This document shows, one piece after another, positions 2,288 through 9,004 of a DNA stretch of 64,000 nucleotides. The translations under genes were made by a program, and so were the position numbers. Source of the stretch: a phage; NCBI GenBank assembly GCA_014685065.1, contig GCA_014685065.1_4092.1; one strand, written 5' to 3'. The notes under the pieces were generated by a model, which saw only the letters and a list, made by a program, of their open reading frames with translations, made no database searches and had not been told where the DNA came from. The number at the start of each line of letters is the position of its first letter. Within the stretch, counting starts at the first letter, position 1.

Positions 2288-2644
2288 ATGAAAACAAAAA
2301 TCTTTCTACCACAAACCATGATGGAACTGTGTGAACATGATGCAGGAGATGTTGTCACTATTAGTGGTTCCTGGAATGAGAGTACTGAAGACTTTATGCC
2401 AGATGAGGTATATTCTGTTGTTTTAAATGAACAGTACAATACAAGCCGTTGGAATGAACAGTACAATCTAGTTTTTCTTGACAATAACAATGAAAAGTAC
2501 TATCATTGTACGTATGAACGAGGTCTGACAGAACGTAACTACACAACTCCTTTCTGTGATGAAATGGATGGTGTAAAGTGCTATGAAGTTTCTGTTCGTC
2601 AGGTTCCAGTTGTTACTTACAAAACCGAGTGGGATTATCTGTAA
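2288..2644 (+). CDS. hypothetical protein, paralog family A
   Basis: tandem paralog of 1995-2267. Confidence 0.6.
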   Translation: MKTKIFLPQTMMELCEHDAGDVVTISGSWNESTEDFMPDEVYSVVLNEQYNTSRWNEQYNLVFLDNNNEKYYHCTYERGLTERNYTTPFCDEMDGVKCYEVSVRQVPVVTYKTEWDYL

Positions 2645-3042
2645 TGATTAAAGATTTAGATTTTTCAAATTTAGAGATCATCAGTGCAGTGAAGAATATT
2701 ACTGATATGGATGATGAAAAAGGTGTAATGGTAACTATCACTTTCGTAAAGGAAGAGGATAGCTATAAGCATCTTACTGGAATTGAAGAACTAATTCATA
2801 AAACCAATCTTGAGAATGATGGTAAACTCATCAAGCTTCAGGCTTCATATACGCAAAAAACGTCAAATTTTATAGACCTAAATAATGTAGTCAAGGTGGT
2901 ATACAATCATCCTGATCACACATATAGGAACACGACAAGAAATGAAAATGTTGCTAACGATTCGAATATTATCGAAGATGTTGAATTCATAAACACAATT
3001 TTTGATCGTTGTTCTAAGGATTTAAAAAAAGTATACATGTAA
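2644..3042 (+). CDS. hypothetical protein
   Basis: ORF, TAATG overlap start. Confidence 0.5.
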   Translation: MIKDLDFSNLEIISAVKNITDMDDEKGVMVTITFVKEEDSYKHLTGIEELIHKTNLENDGKLIKLQASYTQKTSNFIDLNNVVKVVYNHPDHTYRNTTRNENVANDSNIIEDVEFINTIFDRCSKDLKKVYM

Positions 3043-3043
3043 T

Positions 3044-3071
3044 GGGACATTATATGTTCCAATGATATAAT
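3044..3071 (+). promoter_or_regulatory. sigma70-type promoter GGGACA-N16-TGaTATAAT
   Basis: GGGACA 3044-3049, TATAAT 3066-3071 with TG extended -10; drives ORF-free region. Confidence 0.55.
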
Positions 3072-3344
3072 GTATATAGAAAATGACAACGGACATTGAA
3101 AAATGGACACTGAGAACCTACTTCTCTTGAAAATGTAAAGGATAGATGAGCTTTACCGTTGTAGCGAACAGCAGAAGAAACCTGTTAGAGTACTGGCATT
3201 TAAACAAACACGATGTAAGACCACGAATCACGGCGACACGGCTGTATAAAGAACTCCGATAAGCATACAGAGAGTTCCTAGATAGATGTATAAGGTTCGC
3301 ACCTTACCAGATTTGCTAAGGGAGTTTAAGAATAGCGGACGCAA

Positions 3345-3529
3345 TTTTACAAGAAAGTTGCGTCCAAAATTTGAGAACAGGTACTACTTTGATCGAATAG
3401 AGTTAGTACTGAGTGCTGTTGATGAAAAGACCAGCGACCGTTGCATATGACTGCGATAGAGAGAAACCGAGCAACCCGCTTTCGCTCTCTAAATTTTGGT
3501 ACAAGAAAGATCCGTCCAAAATTTGAGAA
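3345..3529 (+). repeat. duplicated ~33-nt element (two copies: 3345-3377 and 3496-3529) containing exact 17-mer CGTCCAAAATTTGAGAA
   Basis: exact 17-nt direct repeat at 3361-3377 and 3513-3529, each copy embedded in a hairpin. Confidence 0.7.
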
Positions 3530-3567
3530 ATTCGCAATTCGATAATATCCGATGCCATCATCGTCAA

Positions 3568-3592
3568 GAGAGACTTAATTGTCTCTTTTTTA
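3568..3592 (+). terminator. intrinsic terminator inside non-coding region
   Basis: AGAGAC ttaatt GTCTCT then TTTTTTATT. Confidence 0.5.
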
Positions 3593-3731
3593 TTACCTTC
3601 ATTCCCCTGCGGGGGGATGTAATAGTCCTCAACAAATCCCGTCAAGTTTTTAAAGTACATTATCATTTTCAGAAGGAACTAGTTTACGAAGTAAACGCAG
3701 TGACTTCTTGAGTTACGAGAGAACGAAGTGA

Positions 3732-4160
3732 ATGAGTAACACAACGAAAATATACGATAAATCTGAATTAACACAAATGTTATTCAAAGAATATTTTGAG
3801 TTTCAGATAAAAGACGAACATCAATTACCACAGCAATATTTGAAAAGAATTAAAGATCCGTCAGTAATTACTAAAGAAACTAATTTTTATAATAGTATTT
3901 TAGATTTCGTTAAATCAGTTCATACAACAAGACCTATTGTAGTTTTGTTTTTTGATAAATCTATTCCTTTAGTAGTTCCTGAAAATGTATTTTTTATCTC
4001 AGAAACTGATTTAAATAATCAAAGTACTGTAAGTAGATTAAGAAATTGCTTACTTGTAGTATGTGATTCTTCTTTGTATATTAATAGAATACTATGGGAT
4101 AGAAGTAAACGCAATGCAGTTTCGGAAATGAATCCTGAAATTACCTTTATTATTAACTAA
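3732..4160 (+). CDS. hypothetical protein
   Basis: ORF 142 aa. Confidence 0.5.
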   Translation: MSNTTKIYDKSELTQMLFKEYFEFQIKDEHQLPQQYLKRIKDPSVITKETNFYNSILDFVKSVHTTRPIVVLFFDKSIPLVVPENVFFISETDLNNQSTVSRLRNCLLVVCDSSLYINRILWDRSKRNAVSEMNPEITFIIN

Positions 4161-4681: not shown

Positions 4682-5314
4682 ATGAAATCGCATGAATTAG
4701 CAAAATTACTACTGTCTCAACCGAATCTAGACATTTATCATTATGATGCAGAGAGTGACTTGCATTATCAGAATTTTGATAATAGATTAATGGTTACACC
4801 ATCTGGTATTTTCACCACAGTAAAAACCACATTAGATTATGAAAATGTACTTACTCCATACCATACACCACTCTTGGGTCACGTCCAAATTTTCTTTAAG
4901 GATGGTACTATTACTCCAAAATTGGAGGGTTCACATATCCAAACTGTTCTTAACTTAGAATATGGGTTGGTATTTAACATTCCTTATGAAAAGCCAATTA
5001 TTTTATTAGGTAAAAATCAATCAACACAATTCACTAATCAACATGCTGTTTGTTATACATCCGATGATATTGATTTCATTTCAGTACTGACAGAATATGA
5101 TCCTAATACTTGGCATGAAACATGGGAAAATATGTCATATGATGAAGCAATTGAATGTGGTAAAAATTTAGCCAAAATGTTATTTCCACCGAAAAAAGAA
5201 CTTTCACAAGAACAAAATGAATCATTTTCTAAAGATTTTCCTGATTCTGAATTCAATGTTAAAGCATCAACTACCAAAATTGGTGAATTTCTAAATGAAA
5301 ATCAAAAAGATTAA
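4682..5314 (+). CDS. hypothetical protein, paralog family B
   Basis: GGAG RBS; N-terminus HELAKLLLSQPNLDIYHYD similar to 5684-6268 KDLAALLMQNPEMEVYHEH. Confidence 0.55.
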   Translation: MKSHELAKLLLSQPNLDIYHYDAESDLHYQNFDNRLMVTPSGIFTTVKTTLDYENVLTPYHTPLLGHVQIFFKDGTITPKLEGSHIQTVLNLEYGLVFNIPYEKPIILLGKNQSTQFTNQHAVCYTSDDIDFISVLTEYDPNTWHETWENMSYDEAIECGKNLAKMLFPPKKELSQEQNESFSKDFPDSEFNVKASTTKIGEFLNENQKD

Positions 5315-5687
5315 ATTCCACCAGCATTGTTCTATACATGTCTGTGATGATTGTGGTATACAAATGAGTGATATTTATACAGTTTCCTGTAAAGGTTTCA
5401 AATTCACTCATGGTGAACCTGCTTACTGTTATGGCACAGAAGAAGGTGATATCGAGATAGTACTGAAAGAATTGTTCCAGTACTTGCAAAGTGTCGGTCA
5501 TGATGTTACAATACCCACATATTATGAAGATGATTATGATGCACATGTGGAAGAAAATACATATTATAATCAATTCGTTTATGGTAATGGTTTTATCACA
5601 TACCTACATGAGAATGGTATTGAGGTAAAAACTAAGTACACCAGTGATGATTATGATGATGATAATTCTATGGAGATTGAAGATTGA
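5295..5687 (+). CDS. hypothetical protein (Cys-rich N-terminus, acidic C-terminus)
   Basis: ORF 130 aa. Confidence 0.45.
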   Translation: MKIKKIKFHQHCSIHVCDDCGIQMSDIYTVSCKGFKFTHGEPAYCYGTEEGDIEIVLKELFQYLQSVGHDVTIPTYYEDDYDAHVEENTYYNQFVYGNGFITYLHENGIEVKTKYTSDDYDDDNSMEIED

Positions 5688-6268
5688 AAGCAAAAGACTT
5701 GGCAGCACTGTTGATGCAGAATCCTGAAATGGAAGTGTATCATGAGCACATGCACATTGATGACATGTGTGACGCTTACTATTCACCAGAAAATGTGTCT
5801 GGTATTGAAATCACCCCTAGTGGAGTATTCATCAGTACTGAACGTATTGATTATAATTCCCAGCAAGAAATCAAAACTCCACATAATAAACCTCGCATTG
5901 GTGCAATTGACCTAGTATTTCATCAGGACCGTTTGGTGGAATATGATGAAGACGATGGTACTACCCGAACTGATGTTGAGAATGTTGTTTTTCGTTTTTA
6001 TAATGCATACGAAGACCCAACTACTGGAGAAGATTTCTTCCGTGAGCTATTAGAGGATGGAGAAGTTTATGGTCAGGATGGTACGGTTTTTGTACTAGAC
6101 CCTAACTATGAGCCAGATCACAATACATGGCAATTCTATACACCAGAAGATGTAATGGAAGTTAAAGTACTTATGGATATTGACGATAAATGGAATCCTA
6201 TGTATACTTCAATGACATATGAAGAAGCCAAAGAATACTTCGTTTCTAAACTAAACATTACAAAATAA
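5684..6268 (+). CDS. hypothetical protein, paralog family B
   Basis: paralog of 4682-5314. Confidence 0.55.
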   Translation: MKAKDLAALLMQNPEMEVYHEHMHIDDMCDAYYSPENVSGIEITPSGVFISTERIDYNSQQEIKTPHNKPRIGAIDLVFHQDRLVEYDEDDGTTRTDVENVVFRFYNAYEDPTTGEDFFRELLEDGEVYGQDGTVFVLDPNYEPDHNTWQFYTPEDVMEVKVLMDIDDKWNPMYTSMTYEEAKEYFVSKLNITK

Positions 6269-6285
6269 TAAGGATTCACAAATTT

Positions 6286-6567
6286 ATGAAAATTGTTGCA
6301 AGTGCATGGATGAAACTACCAGATGGTACAACTGCTTTTGAAGAATATGGCTTTGTTGAAAGTGTCGATGAATTAAAGCGTTTCAAAAGTGAAAATGATG
6401 ATGATGTGTTTGATATTGTATTTGTATATCATCATATTCCTAATGATACTGATTATGAACATTATTATTATCATCCTGATTTGTTGGAAACACTTGTATG
6501 CGACAACTATCATGAAATTGATGAAAATACAGCTTTACTAATGTTGAGTACCGTATCTCCGGTATAA
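6286..6567 (+). CDS. hypothetical protein
   Basis: ORF with AAGGA RBS. Confidence 0.5.
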   Translation: MKIVASAWMKLPDGTTAFEEYGFVESVDELKRFKSENDDDVFDIVFVYHHIPNDTDYEHYYYHPDLLETLVCDNYHEIDENTALLMLSTVSPV

Positions 6568-6575
6568 GGAGTAAT

Positions 6576-7055
6576 ATGTATAATCTTATAATTATCCGCG
6601 AACCATATGAATCTGACAACAGTTCAACTGATGGTGAGGTTTTAGTATATCAAAGTTATGAACAAAGTGGTATTGAACATGAATTAAAAGATTATTTACG
6701 TCAACATATATATCTATATCGTACAGAACCACGTGAACAGTATGGAGATATAATGTTTATCGTAACTCATAATGGTGCAGTAATTGAACATGTAAATATG
6801 ACAAATAACATGTATTTTCATAATTACACTGACACGTCTAAAGAATTAGGAAACGATTTCAAGTCTGTTTTCGATGCATTGCGTATCAATTTTTTTAAAA
6901 ATGACAAATTCTGTACTGATATTAGATTAGAAGAAGCAAATACAAAAAAGAAACTTTCTCGAAAATACGAGAGTGATAGAAAAAAAGAACAAGAGATTCA
7001 GCGTTTACACGAATTGATGAAAAAATACCCTAATGAGGTACAGCATGGCTCTTAG
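6576..7055 (+). CDS. hypothetical protein
   Basis: ORF with AAGGAG RBS. Confidence 0.5.
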   Translation: MYNLIIIREPYESDNSSTDGEVLVYQSYEQSGIEHELKDYLRQHIYLYRTEPREQYGDIMFIVTHNGAVIEHVNMTNNMYFHNYTDTSKELGNDFKSVFDALRINFFKNDKFCTDIRLEEANTKKKLSRKYESDRKKEQEIQRLHELMKKYPNEVQHGS

Positions 7056-7383
7056 AGGTTCAAATCAATATAAATGTATTGCAGAGATCAGGAAGAAAGA
7101 TGGAACACTTGTAGACCGAGCATTGAAGCAAGAATATAAAGAACTACGTGATGTGGTGCATAATGATAGTTATGGCGGGATGCGTCGTCAAAAAATTTAT
7201 GAATATCTAAAGAAAGGTTTAGAAATTCAGGTTAATGGTCTTCATTGTATTCAAACAAAAAACGATCCTGATATTCTACGTTTGTTGAAAGAAGATAAGA
7301 TTGAAATGTTTAATGTTCCTATTTCATTCTATGGTAATAAACTAAAATGTAAGCATACTTTCTTGAGGATTAAAAATGGTTGA
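7045..7383 (+). CDS. hypothetical protein
   Basis: ORF; ATG 7045 with GAGG RBS preferred. Confidence 0.45.
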   Translation: MALRGSNQYKCIAEIRKKDGTLVDRALKQEYKELRDVVHNDSYGGMRRQKIYEYLKKGLEIQVNGLHCIQTKNDPDILRLLKEDKIEMFNVPISFYGNKLKCKHTFLRIKNG

Positions 7384-7600
7384 TTCATTTATGAAAAAAA
7401 TCTTTAAAAATTTACTATCTGGATTTGAAAAAGCAGTCCGTCTTATTTTCAGTTCAGTTGTAATGGTTATTACAGTACTGGCATTTTCTCTAGTACTGCA
7501 TTTTGTACCATTCTGGTTAGTCTTTATTGTACTTATTGCTCTGCTAGGTGCACATGTTTATTATGTTTACCGTGACGCATTGGATGATGATAACGATTAA
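7376..7600 (+). CDS. small membrane protein with two predicted TM helices (holin candidate, speculative)
   Basis: two long hydrophobic stretches, GAGGA RBS. Confidence 0.4.
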   Translation: MVDSFMKKIFKNLLSGFEKAVRLIFSSVVMVITVLAFSLVLHFVPFWLVFIVLIALLGAHVYYVYRDALDDDND

Positions 7601-7608
7601 ATGTATTT

Positions 7609-7633
7609 GACCTCACTATGTGGGGTCTTTTTT
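7609..7633 (+). terminator. intrinsic terminator
   Basis: 7-bp stem GACCTCA/TGGGGTC with G-U pair then TTTTTT. Confidence 0.45.
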
Positions 7634-7645
7634 AAGGAAAATTAT

Positions 7646-8098
7646 ATGCTTATAGAAACAGAAACATTTAAGCGTTTTATAGACGTATGTCGTGATACGT
7701 GTTTTTGTTTTCTTTCATCACAAGAACAGTTCGATGCAATGAGTGATGTGTTAGGATATCGCCGTTCGGTATTGATGAATTTTGATGGTCCTTTGATTGA
7801 AGTTCATGATGATGTGTATTCCCTCCAATATGTATCAATTAACAATGCGTTCATTTTTATTGCTGACTCGTACTCAATTGTAGTTGAGGAACGTGGTAAA
7901 GGTATACCAACAACACACTATATTGATTGTCAAAGAACTGATTGTGTTTATAGTTCTGGACTAATACAAACACCAATTCCATATCCTAGCATTTATATAA
8001 ACACACTCCATCGAGAAATTATTGAGTACTGTAATAGTATTTCTGATACAGATACACAGTATTTTCCTATTGTATTATTGAAAGGAGTTAGAATATGA
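7646..8098 (+). CDS. hypothetical protein
   Basis: ORF, AAGGA RBS, start after terminator. Confidence 0.5.
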   Translation: MLIETETFKRFIDVCRDTCFCFLSSQEQFDAMSDVLGYRRSVLMNFDGPLIEVHDDVYSLQYVSINNAFIFIADSYSIVVEERGKGIPTTHYIDCQRTDCVYSSGLIQTPIPYPSIYINTLHREIIEYCNSISDTDTQYFPIVLLKGVRI

Positions 8099-8484
8099 GA
8101 TGGAAGAAACGTCACATTAAGCGTTTTGAGAAAATAATTAAAAAATATTACTCACATAAGTTAGATCCAATGATTCTTCAGCTAAGGACCAGTATGTTTG
8201 ATAGACGTTATCCGCAGTGTTTAGAATCGTACAGTCGTAAGGGTTCCAAGAATGAATACCAGGTGTATCGTTATGATTTATCTGAATTGTTTTTGAATAC
8301 TCGTGTATCAGTACCAATCAAGCTGTACTCAAGGGTAAAACGAAGTAGGGTTCAAGATATTACATATGGATATCTTATGATTGAAATCGACGACCTCAAT
8401 GAAAAAACTGGCAGAAATTACAGTACTTTATGTCTGGAAAATCATGATTCAATAAAAAGAATCATAGAAGAGTTGGGAAAGTAA
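8095..8484 (+). CDS. hypothetical protein
   Basis: ORF, ATGA overlap. Confidence 0.5.
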   Translation: MRWKKRHIKRFEKIIKKYYSHKLDPMILQLRTSMFDRRYPQCLESYSRKGSKNEYQVYRYDLSELFLNTRVSVPIKLYSRVKRSRVQDITYGYLMIEIDDLNEKTGRNYSTLCLENHDSIKRIIEELGK

Positions 8485-8513
8485 GATTTTTAGTGCTATA
8501 ATTGGAGATGAGT

Positions 8514-8858
8514 ATGAAATACATCGATAAAGGTACAGTGGAGACACAGTACTGGAATATCCATATTGCTGGTGATATTCAAACAGCAAGAGAGTACACA
8601 AGAAAGTTTGCGTTTAAGCATGGCTTTTGTGTACAATTAATTCCCTGTGAATATATCTACACTGGCGGTCTTGAAAGTGGGATGTGTGCTCGTATTATTC
8701 AGTACCCACGCTTTCCAAAAGAAGAAGTATATCTCAACCGAGATGTATTAAACTATGCAAAGGGTTTAGCTGAAGAGTTGTGTCAAAAGAGCTTTACTAT
8801 AGAGCGAAATAATGATACAATTTATTATGAAAGTGATGAACCTTTACACAAGAAATAA
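8514..8858 (+). CDS. hypothetical protein
   Basis: ORF, GGAG RBS. Confidence 0.5.
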   Translation: MKYIDKGTVETQYWNIHIAGDIQTAREYTRKFAFKHGFCVQLIPCEYIYTGGLESGMCARIIQYPRFPKEEVYLNRDVLNYAKGLAEELCQKSFTIERNNDTIYYESDEPLHKK

Positions 8859-8869
8859 AAGGAAAATAT

Positions 8870-9001
8870 ATGAATGGACTAAAGAAATTTGGTAAAGATT
8901 TTCTAAAATGTATACGCTATACATATGATGCAAACCCAGAAATGACTGCTATTGTGGGTGTGTTTATTACACTCGTTGTATTAAGCTTTATTGTGGTGTA
9001 A
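8870..9001 (+). CDS. small C-terminally TM-anchored protein (43 aa)
   Basis: ORF below track cutoff, AGGA RBS, hydrophobic tail AIVGVFITLVVLSFIVV. Confidence 0.35.
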   Translation: MNGLKKFGKDFLKCIRYTYDANPEMTAIVGVFITLVVLSFIVV

Positions 9002-9004
9002 CAT

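Follow-up and report, generated by a model that had tools for sequence, protein, structure and literature searches.

To our knowledge, only few classes of bacterial or phage non-coding RNA are longer than 500 nt and show complex conserved folds. Large RNAs with known roles serve core functions of the cell, and the classes ROOL, GOLLD and OLE gave unexpected architectures. ROOL and GOLLD genes are often found near tRNA genes. Both RNAs were seen by cryo-electron microscopy (cryo-EM) to form RNA-only multimeric cages (PMC12286853), and RNA-seq defined a 619-nt "putative lncRNA" (long non-coding RNA), ncRNA004, in the Pseudomonas jumbo phage PA5oct (PMC7318152). Here we describe an RNA encoded in a 64,000-nt stretch of phage DNA (contig GCA_014685065.1_4092.1, in the following referred to as the window), a piece of an Asteriusvirus jumbo phage with 99.6% identity to vB_EcoM_CRJP21 and 95-97% identity to the PBECO4 / 121Q group. 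In this window, a 689-base intergenic gap separates a gene encoding 137 amino acids (2629-3042, phrog_9016) from a gene encoding 142 amino acids (3732-4160, phrog_35272). A preliminary description, based on the sequence alone, had read the gap as a structured non-coding RNA locus without open reading frame (ORF) that encodes one or more small RNAs (sRNAs) or a structured regulatory RNA.

We conclude that this stretch almost certainly is a functional structured RNA gene. Its product belongs to a previously undescribed family of large structured non-coding RNAs with a core of ~515 nt, or ~515-660 bases or more if the 3′ tail is included. The core extends from about position 3078, the inferred start, to a hairpin followed by six U residues at 3592, and full-length nhmmer matches to it were obtained in all loci. 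Its fold comprises at least 18 helices, including four pseudoknot-type pairings, arranged around a near-invariant segment of ~50 nt. All features of the RNA given below lie on the + strand of the window, and numbers with the prefix L denote the loci compared.

Judged by analogy, ROOL and GOLLD are the nearest analogues of this RNA, and the likeness is limited to size, complexity of the fold and phage association. They share with it the size class above 500 nt (~500-800 nt), the many helices and pseudoknots, the location in stand-alone phage or prophage genes and the lack of a known function. In contrast, our RNA does not match their Rfam covariance models and is not associated with tRNA genes: only one of the 36 loci screened with ARAGORN contains any, at a distance of more than 8 kb. 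The hosts of ROOL and GOLLD are Lactobacillales or rumen and lake bacteria, whereas those described here are Enterobacterales. Moreover, the RNA occurs as two paralogues per genome.

The ncRNA004 of PA5oct, which is only distantly related to the phage described here, resembles our RNA in its length, its stand-alone position, the opposite-strand genes on both sides and its occurrence in the wider Rak2/PA5oct group. It also ends (L063:1117-1735) in a UUCCUUCCC-AAAC-GGGGAGGAA hairpin that recalls the CCCC-UGC-GGGGGG element of our family. The neighbouring protein is unrelated, however, and homology between the two RNAs could not be demonstrated: our model R1 reached 5 bits at best, and nhmmer with relaxed filters and a positive control included gave a best score of 0 bits at an E value of 0.11. 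The pRNA of phi29, an RNA of ~170 nt known only from phi29-like phages, is likewise a structural phage RNA with a loop-loop pairing in which compensating sequences are interchangeable, but it has no sequence relation to our RNA. A role in packaging is argued against by the presence of the RNA in prophage lysogeny modules and in a small island.

Covariation, coding potential and pseudoknots

The fold was derived from an alignment of 36 representative sequences with identities down to ~55%. All column pairs were scanned for runs of complementary, covarying columns, and 18 helices with 84 pairs were assembled. Controls consisted of models in which the 3′ partners were slid by one to three columns and of 500 shuffles. 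Standard pairs fill 93.7% of all cells (84 pairs in 36 sequences; a somewhat inflated value, see below), compared with 37-44% in the slid controls. Changes on both sides were found at 58 pairs (20-27 when slid) and in 403 cells (37-69 when slid), and none of the 500 shuffles matched any of the observed pairing measures. The four pseudoknot-type pairings taken alone are 95.7% paired, as opposed to 24-40% in their slid controls. This unusually clean covariation, a check proposed in the preliminary description, supports the family including its four pseudoknot-type pairings. The minimum free energy of 3078-3592 corresponds to a z-score of -3.5. At several positions of the model, G:U is the commonest pair. 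Because such pairs would be A-C mismatches on the opposite strand, the + strand is the functional one, a reading that agrees with the orientation of the putative promoter and of the U-tract.

Protein-coding capacity was assessed from the same 36 homologues. In the window, the longest ORFs of the gap encode 87 amino acids on the - strand and 71 on the + strand, in line with the previously noted absence of any ORF above ~90 amino acids, and none of the window ORFs matches a Pfam or PHROG family. The longest ORFs of the homologues differ in strand, frame and position, and no ORF is conserved. Variability along the alignment columns shows no period-3 signal (the corresponding bin ranks 39th of 182), and an intact gene at this site was not found in the relatives. 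The most conserved block contains an ATG-initiated frame of 33 codons in the window, the ATG of which is lost in L005, L045 and L055, while in others the frame is disrupted by 1- and 4-nt indels. Together with the covariation, these results back the original reading of the gap as an ORF-free structured non-coding RNA locus. The higher local GC content noted before was also found (0.40-0.42 across 3151-3600 vs 0.24-0.34 in the flanks).

In most GenBank records, the stretch is either unannotated or carries short hypothetical coding sequences (CDSs) that disagree in strand or position. Examples are M2K_0604-0607 of SHEFM2K (L003:1603-2169), gene 516 of 121Q (L002:2861-3016) and g347/g348 of Yen9-04 (L006:1703-1855). 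Judged from the alignment, these CDSs are probably spurious, and the annotation of small CDSs in several GenBank records is corrected accordingly.

The pseudoknot-type pairings connect distant parts of the RNA. PK1 joins 3262-3265 (AGCA), located in the loop of the hairpin 3251-3277, to 3314-3317 (UGCU); it corresponds to helix 7, is 84% paired and covaries at three of its four pairs. PK2 is formed between 3392-3398 (AUCGAAU) and 3537-3543 (AUUCGAU), with 98.8% paired cells and covariation at six of seven pairs. A tertiary pairing, PK3, links 3236-3238 with 3287-3289 (97.2% paired, two of three pairs covarying); it reads ACA/UGU in the window and AUG/CAU or AUA/UAU elsewhere. The fourth is an H-type knot built from S1 (3440-3444/3471-3475) and S2 (3459-3463/3479-3483), which represent helices 11 and 13 and are 100% paired. 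L060 (GUUAC/GUAAC) and RaK2-type copies (GGACG/CGUUC) show compensatory changes in this knot. The knot is the fold of the near-invariant centre of the RNA, CGACCGUUGCAUAUGAC...GAUAGAGAGAAACMGAGCAACCCGCUUUCG (3435..3483).

PK2 exists in five fully complementary "alleles", and the two paralogues of one genome always differ in theirs. UCGAAU/AUUCGA is found in copy A, the paralogue present in the window, and UUGUAU/AUACAA in copy B as well as in the prophage or island copies. XaC1 and a metagenome-assembled genome (MAG) share UCAUGU/ACAUGA, the RaK2 type is CUUGAAU/AUUCAAG, and L045 has ACUGUAU/AUACAGU. Inside each lineage PK2 is frozen, while other helices drift.

Distribution, paralogues and genomic context

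Among close relatives, conservation of the RNA exceeds that of the flanking genes. Relative to 121Q, identity amounts to 99.2% for the RNA core (3078-3592) and 100% for the tail (3593-3731), compared with 83.4% for the upstream and 98.4% for the downstream CDS. The corresponding values for phage A4 are 80.2% (core), 77.9% (tail), 75.4% (upstream CDS) and 64.7% (downstream CDS). By blastn, 72 phage records match at 67-79% identity. All of these are Rak2-like jumbo phages, with Escherichia, Klebsiella, Salmonella, Erwinia, Yersinia, Cronobacter, Pectobacterium and Serratia as hosts and two records named Xanthomonas phages. A nhmmer profile built from 11 sequences recovered full-length copies in every locus fetched, RaK2 included, and further ones came from pattern scans of IMG/VR, metagenomes and GTDB genomes. 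Each of the sampled genera of Rak2-like jumbo phages has full-length homologues. Across all copies, including the most divergent, model R1 scores between 115 and 197 bits.

Every jumbo phage genome examined for both paralogues contains two copies. The neighbours of copy A, the type found in the window, vary by genus: in Mimasvirus and Eneladusvirus it lies 3′ of GAP32_343, and in Munch and Kae01 it precedes an ADP-ribosylglycohydrolase gene. Copy B is syntenic everywhere, located between the gene for endonuclease VII and the baseplate-hub genes, both of which are encoded on the opposite strand. Neither a repeat/self search nor model R1 detected a second copy in the window; copy B resides at the endonuclease VII/baseplate-hub locus elsewhere in the genome.

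The family is not restricted to jumbo phages. In Citrobacter amalonaticus P55 and a metagenomic relative, the RNA is located between the genes for a large serine recombinase and a CI-type repressor and has its own promoter. These two loci (L056:1845-5730 for P55 and L047:958-5687) are related prophages at different host integration sites, with the common order large serine recombinase, RNA, 165-amino-acid ORF and CI-type repressor. The 165-amino-acid ORF has no significant Pfam match in either copy; that of L056 belongs to phrog_20181. An Enterobacteriaceae MAG (L055) carries the RNA next to a convergent CI-like repressor gene. Among 5,426 complete E. coli genomes, the RNA is present in two, in a small island beside ffs. 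In E. coli LR-29-1 (L058; NZ_AP027515.1 3469971-3488553), this island spans 4791-15341 (~11 kb) and contains the RNA at 8946-9643 within an unannotated gap of 1.4 kb. It has an IS3-disrupted integrase gene as well as genes for mSLOG-DUF4326, DUF488 and dual-OB (DuOB) proteins, the last three being typical of conflict systems. No homologue was found among 72,556 plasmids (PLSDB). A partner protein shared across contexts was considered and rejected, as no protein encoded beside a prophage or island copy recurs beside the copies of jumbo phages. Taken together, these results show that the two paralogue lineages were already separate before the Rak2-like genera diverged and have been retained ever since, and that temperate elements have also acquired the RNA.

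Two loci have additional features. In RaK2, copy A (L013, RNA at 1459-2073) immediately follows ORF244 (521-1417), the phage gene for an RNA polymerase sigma factor, a neighbourhood not seen in other genera, and GenBank places ORF245 on the RNA itself. The RaK2-like metagenomic contig L043 contains one full copy and, ~640 nt downstream and in the same orientation, a further promoter with the 5′ part of the RNA (profile positions 2-167); the two segments occupy 117-293 and 932-1532. This second part may be a tandem partial duplication.

Transcription, possible function and alternative explanations

A promoter had been predicted directly past the stop codon of the upstream gene (3040-3042), and the motif is present as described: a -35-like GGGACA (3044-3049), a 16-nt spacer and TATAAT (3066-3071) preceded by TG (3063-3064). 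The putative promoter thus spans 3044..3071 and has an extended -10 region, TGaTATAAT (consensus TGnTATAAT; 3063-3071). The match alone is weak proof, since this AT-rich region contains no excess of promoter-like sites (six found vs 7.4 expected); the real support is conservation. Among the 36 homologues, A15 and A17 of the -10 box are invariant, and T14, T16, A18 and T19, as well as T11, the T of the TG before it, are conserved in at least 90%. No conservation was detected in the -35 region of these sequences. In GAP32, CBB and Yen9-04, a terminator hairpin lies immediately 5′ of the promoter. By its sequence, the RNA gene looks like an autonomous unit transcribed by the host sigma-70 RNA polymerase, with a transcription start near 3078.

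At the other end, the previously noticed hairpin with T-run is found at 3569-3591 (AGAGAC-TTAATT-GTCTCT followed by T6). In the RNA, this terminator-like hairpin, AGAGAC/GUCUCU with U6 (3569..3592), constitutes helix 17 and covaries at four of five pairs, and its stem or U-run is missing in some homologues (L045, L052, L055). A simple consensus terminator scan did not call the + strand hairpin with T6 at 3569-3591, although its stated criteria apparently apply; the same scan called a site on the - strand, 3487-3469, within the invariant core. Conserved sequence continues beyond the hairpin as a structured 3′ tail of ~150 nt (3593..3740), which we regard as RNA because its hairpins covary. The hairpin is probably a leaky terminator, which would lead to two RNA species of ~515 nt and ~650-690 nt.

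We favour a reading in which the product as a whole is a trans-acting folded RNA particle, and we regard this as probable. Action in trans is suggested by the differing neighbour genes of the loci, that is, the lack of a conserved neighbour, together with the host-type promoter and the lysogeny-module site in two prophages. Lysogeny modules are the usual site of independently expressed accessory genes. According to this model, the host RNA polymerase would transcribe the RNA early in infection and, in lysogens, from the prophage. The folded RNA, a compact particle, would then act on a target that Enterobacterales have in common, either by binding or sequestering a host component, as a ribozyme or by self-assembly like ROOL and GOLLD, and the neighbouring genes would not be regulated by it. 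As active or binding site, the near-invariant H-type pseudoknot is the most promising candidate. PK2 could serve as a paralogue-specific pairing code, an address that prevents mispairing of the two paralogues; such a code fits intermolecular pairing as in the multimeric ROOL and GOLLD assemblies.

The occurrence in lytic phages, lysogeny modules and an island, the own host-type promoter and the absence of a partner gene suggest that the RNA is a self-sufficient tool in conflicts between phage and host or between phages. RNA-only players in such conflicts are, as far as we know, almost without precedent. More tentatively, and with clearly less confidence than in a trans-acting particle as such, the family could represent a novel type of RNA particle, catalytic or self-assembling and either RNA-only or a ribonucleoprotein. 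Lytic jumbo phages, with two paralogues each, and temperate elements, from their lysogeny module, might use it to manipulate an Enterobacterales-wide process or to exclude competing phages, with 3435-3483 as active or binding site and PK2 as a homotypic assembly code. The carriers include cultivable E. coli phages (PBECO4, 121Q, phAPEC6, CRJP21 and relatives), which makes the RNA experimentally tractable.

Several points weigh against a trans-acting particle or the evidence for it. Computation identified no target, partner or catalytic activity. We found no description of the RNA in the literature, and the papers on the phages RaK2 and Sharanji do not mention it. The helices were derived from the same alignment on which they were scored, which inflates the percentage of paired cells somewhat and affects the double-sided changes less. 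The difference in PK2 between paralogues could reflect plain ancient divergence instead of selected specificity. Both the 5′ and the 3′ end of the RNA are inferred, and the strong U-tract hairpin could stop most transcripts; the tail would then have to be explained in a different way.

Of the other readings, a cis-acting leader would be a long 5′ untranslated region, a riboswitch or an antitermination element governing expression of the gene 3732-4160 and read-through at the hairpin 3569-3592. Such a leader could account for a terminator-like hairpin within the conserved element, for conserved sequence past it and for the last tail hairpin (3712-3716/3736-3740), which brackets the start codon at 3732 in the window. 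It is nevertheless unlikely: a consistent downstream gene on the same strand is lacking, as the genes following the RNA are unrelated between loci, lie on the opposite strand in case of copy B and encode a convergent CI repressor in L055. The length above 500 nt and the several pseudoknots also put the RNA far beyond the known leaders, and no riboswitch or leader of Rfam matches. The earlier suggestion of a structured regulatory RNA, taken as leader of the downstream gene, therefore fails with the varying neighbours. Independent sRNAs do not describe the locus either. A trans-acting Hfq-type sRNA of 50-300 nt with seed, terminator hairpin and U-tail was rejected despite the terminator-like hairpin with U6, since long-range helices spanning 3392-3543 tie together one unit of at least 515 nt; instead of one or more sRNAs, the gap encodes a single large RNA, ~515 nt plus tail, with several pseudoknots. 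Quite unlikely is, furthermore, a primer for a replication origin, an untranslated R-loop transcript of ~550 nt like ColE1 RNA II or T4 oriF/oriG, with the G6/C4 element aiding the hybrid. Size and promoter layout indeed recall RNA II, which is a promoter-driven, untranslated ~550-nt transcript with a G-run element from an enterobacterial mobile element. A primer would also be in keeping with the presence of two copies in each large genome, with the invariant G-run that lies together with a C-run shortly after the U-tract, and with the restriction of the family to Enterobacterales phages and elements, save the two records named Xanthomonas phages. However, no plasmid carries a homologue, GC skew does not change at the locus, an antisense arrangement of the RNA I type is not evident, and the elements carrying the RNA have no common replication genes beside it. 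The conserved, pseudoknot-rich fold, with covarying loop-to-strand pairings and ~50 invariant nucleotides, favours a folded RNA over a hybrid-former.

A selfish, non-autonomous mobile RNA or DNA element, for example an intron-like or homing-associated one without ORF and without function for the phage, would explain why the contexts of copy A differ by genus, why unrelated prophages and an island carry members of the family, and why HNH endonuclease genes lie nearby in some loci. Such an element is very unlikely in view of the intergenic position with a conserved promoter of its own, the absence of group I or group II intron signatures and covariance model matches, and the absence of visible terminal repeats or target duplications. 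The synteny of copy B across genera and the age of the two paralogue lineages, which are older than the genera, indicate that selection has retained the RNA over long times. Still less probable is that the RNA belongs to a known family (RNase P RNA, tmRNA, group I or II intron, ROOL, GOLLD or 6S RNA) but is too divergent for the models to recognise. With gathering thresholds, Rfam 15 (4227 models) gave no match in the 64-kb window, and in 12 homologous loci none on the RNA, where TPP riboswitch and SRP RNA matches lie elsewhere only. At E values up to 10, three different members yielded only weak, unrelated and mutually inconsistent matches. ARAGORN found no tRNA or tmRNA in the window and none overlapping the RNA in the 36 loci. 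RNase P RNA was considered because this large pseudoknotted RNA shares short blocks with ours by eye: CGACCGUUGCA and ACAGAGCAACCCGC resemble CGACCAGUGCAACAGAGAGCAAACCGCC of the E. coli M1 RNA, and AGAUGAG...CAGAAGAAACCCG resembles AGAUGAAUG...ACAGAACCCGG. These blocks lie in other structural contexts, GAGAG for instance being base-paired here, and alignment to M1 RNA was no better than to shuffles (local alignment scores of 17-22 for seven family members vs a mean of ~19 for shuffled M1). Rfam gave no RNase P match at E values up to 10, and R1 finds nothing in the rnpB locus. Practically negligible is the possibility of a pseudogene in decay or of several small protein genes clustered here. 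The short hypothetical CDSs annotated on the stretch in several records would speak for it, but they differ in strand and position between records, and the longest ORFs of the 36 homologues have neither frame nor location in common; the most conserved block has 1- and 4-nt indels, period-3 signal and Pfam or PHROG matches are absent, and conservation of the stretch exceeds that of the real genes alongside.

Further elements of the core and the tail

The core begins with a 5′ hairpin (3118-3120/3143-3145 and 3124-3128/3138-3142; helices 1-2) with the conserved loop GAAAAUGUA and double-sided changes at seven of eight pairs, followed by the near-invariant AGAUGAG (3144-3150) and a short hairpin, helix 3 (3150-3152/3163-3165; 100% paired, two of three pairs covarying). 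Helices 4 and 5 (3168-3172/3241-3245 and 3182-3185/3230-3233) are 100% and 99.3% paired, covary at eight of nine pairs and surround the conserved strands AGAAGAAAC and CAAUGCG (CGACACG in the window). The region they enclose contains a lineage-variable insertion (3186-3229), which is deleted in Munch-type copies, where CCGU/ACGG is replaced by CCGC/GCGG. A P4-like pairing of CCCGUUAG with CUAAGGG was dropped, as CCGU pairs with ACGG in helix 5 with covariation. Helix 6 (3251-3256/3272-3277) covaries at all six pairs, its variants including AUACCC/GGGUAU and AUACA/UGUAU. The small hairpin UAAGG-UUCGCA-CCUUA (3291..3306), read from the sequence and with a loop length differing by lineage, had been noticed as T-arm-like without forming a canonical tRNA; its stem is real (3291-3295/3302-3306). 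It is followed by the invariant single-stranded block UAAGGGAG (3317..3324), in which A266-A271 are invariant and G272 is conserved in at least 90% of the 36 sequences.

A second lineage-variable insertion (3330..3378) is absent in GAP32, CBB and Munch copy A; copy B and the copies of the prophages contain it in different forms. The hairpin GGACGCAA/TTGCGTCC of the preliminary description does exist, at 3337-3344/3358-3365, but lies in this insertion and thus outside the conserved core. The long hairpin of helix 8 (3381..3409; nine of ten pairs covarying) exposes the AUCGAAU loop that forms PK2, and helix 10 (3414-3417/3433-3436) is 95% paired with covariation at three of four pairs. Long-range helix 12 (UGCGA/UCGCA, 3452-3456/3532-3536; 99.4% paired, three of five covarying), for which variants exist, abuts PK2 on the 3′ strand. 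Helix 14 (3486-3489/3525-3528; 100% paired, all four pairs covarying) closes a lineage-variable arm. The hairpin GAUG...CGUC, helix 15 (3551..3565), lies in the block CCGAUGCYAUCAKCGUCA and is 92.6% paired with one-sided changes only. For a helix that would close the RNA by pairing its 5′ leader with its tail, RNAduplex proposed partners that were inconsistent between sequences.

The two variable arms share a 30-nt direct repeat (TACAAGAAAG.T.CGTCCAAAATTTGAGAA) at 3348-3377 and 3500-3529, with 93% identity and 152 nt apart. The first copy comprises the loop and 3′ strand of the hairpin 3337-3365, and the 3′ part of the second pairs with 3491-3499. By its sequence, the repeat looks like a duplicated or converted module.

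In the tail, the CCCC/GGGG hairpin reported before was found as CCCC-UGC-GGGG at 3604-3614; its GGGGGAU (G560-T566) is invariant in 36 of 36 sequences, and one further G is conserved in at least 90%. The conserved motif CCUCAACAAAUCCCGUCA (3627-3644) and the likewise known hairpin GTTTAC-GAA-GTAAAC, which proved to lie at 3682-3696, one base from its reported place, follow. Both post-terminator tail motifs are unique within the 64-kb window, which rules out that they are general genome-wide regulatory sites. The last tail stem, GUUAC...GUAAC (3712-3716/3736-3740), has the loop GAACGAAGUGA (3721-3731) adjoining the ATG at 3732 of the downstream gene, and 14 other tails show double-sided changes at eight pairs of the terminal hairpin. 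In Asteriusvirus copy A only, this stem encloses the ribosome-binding region and ATG 3732 of the phrog_35272 gene. Read-through could thus be coupled to phrog_35272 translation in that context alone.

On the other side of the RNA, the upstream gene 2629-3042 (phrog_9016; annotated as "structural protein" in 121Q) is unusually divergent among the otherwise near-identical Asteriusviruses, with 83% identity to 121Q and 91% to SHEFM2K, compared with 99% for the adjoining RNA.

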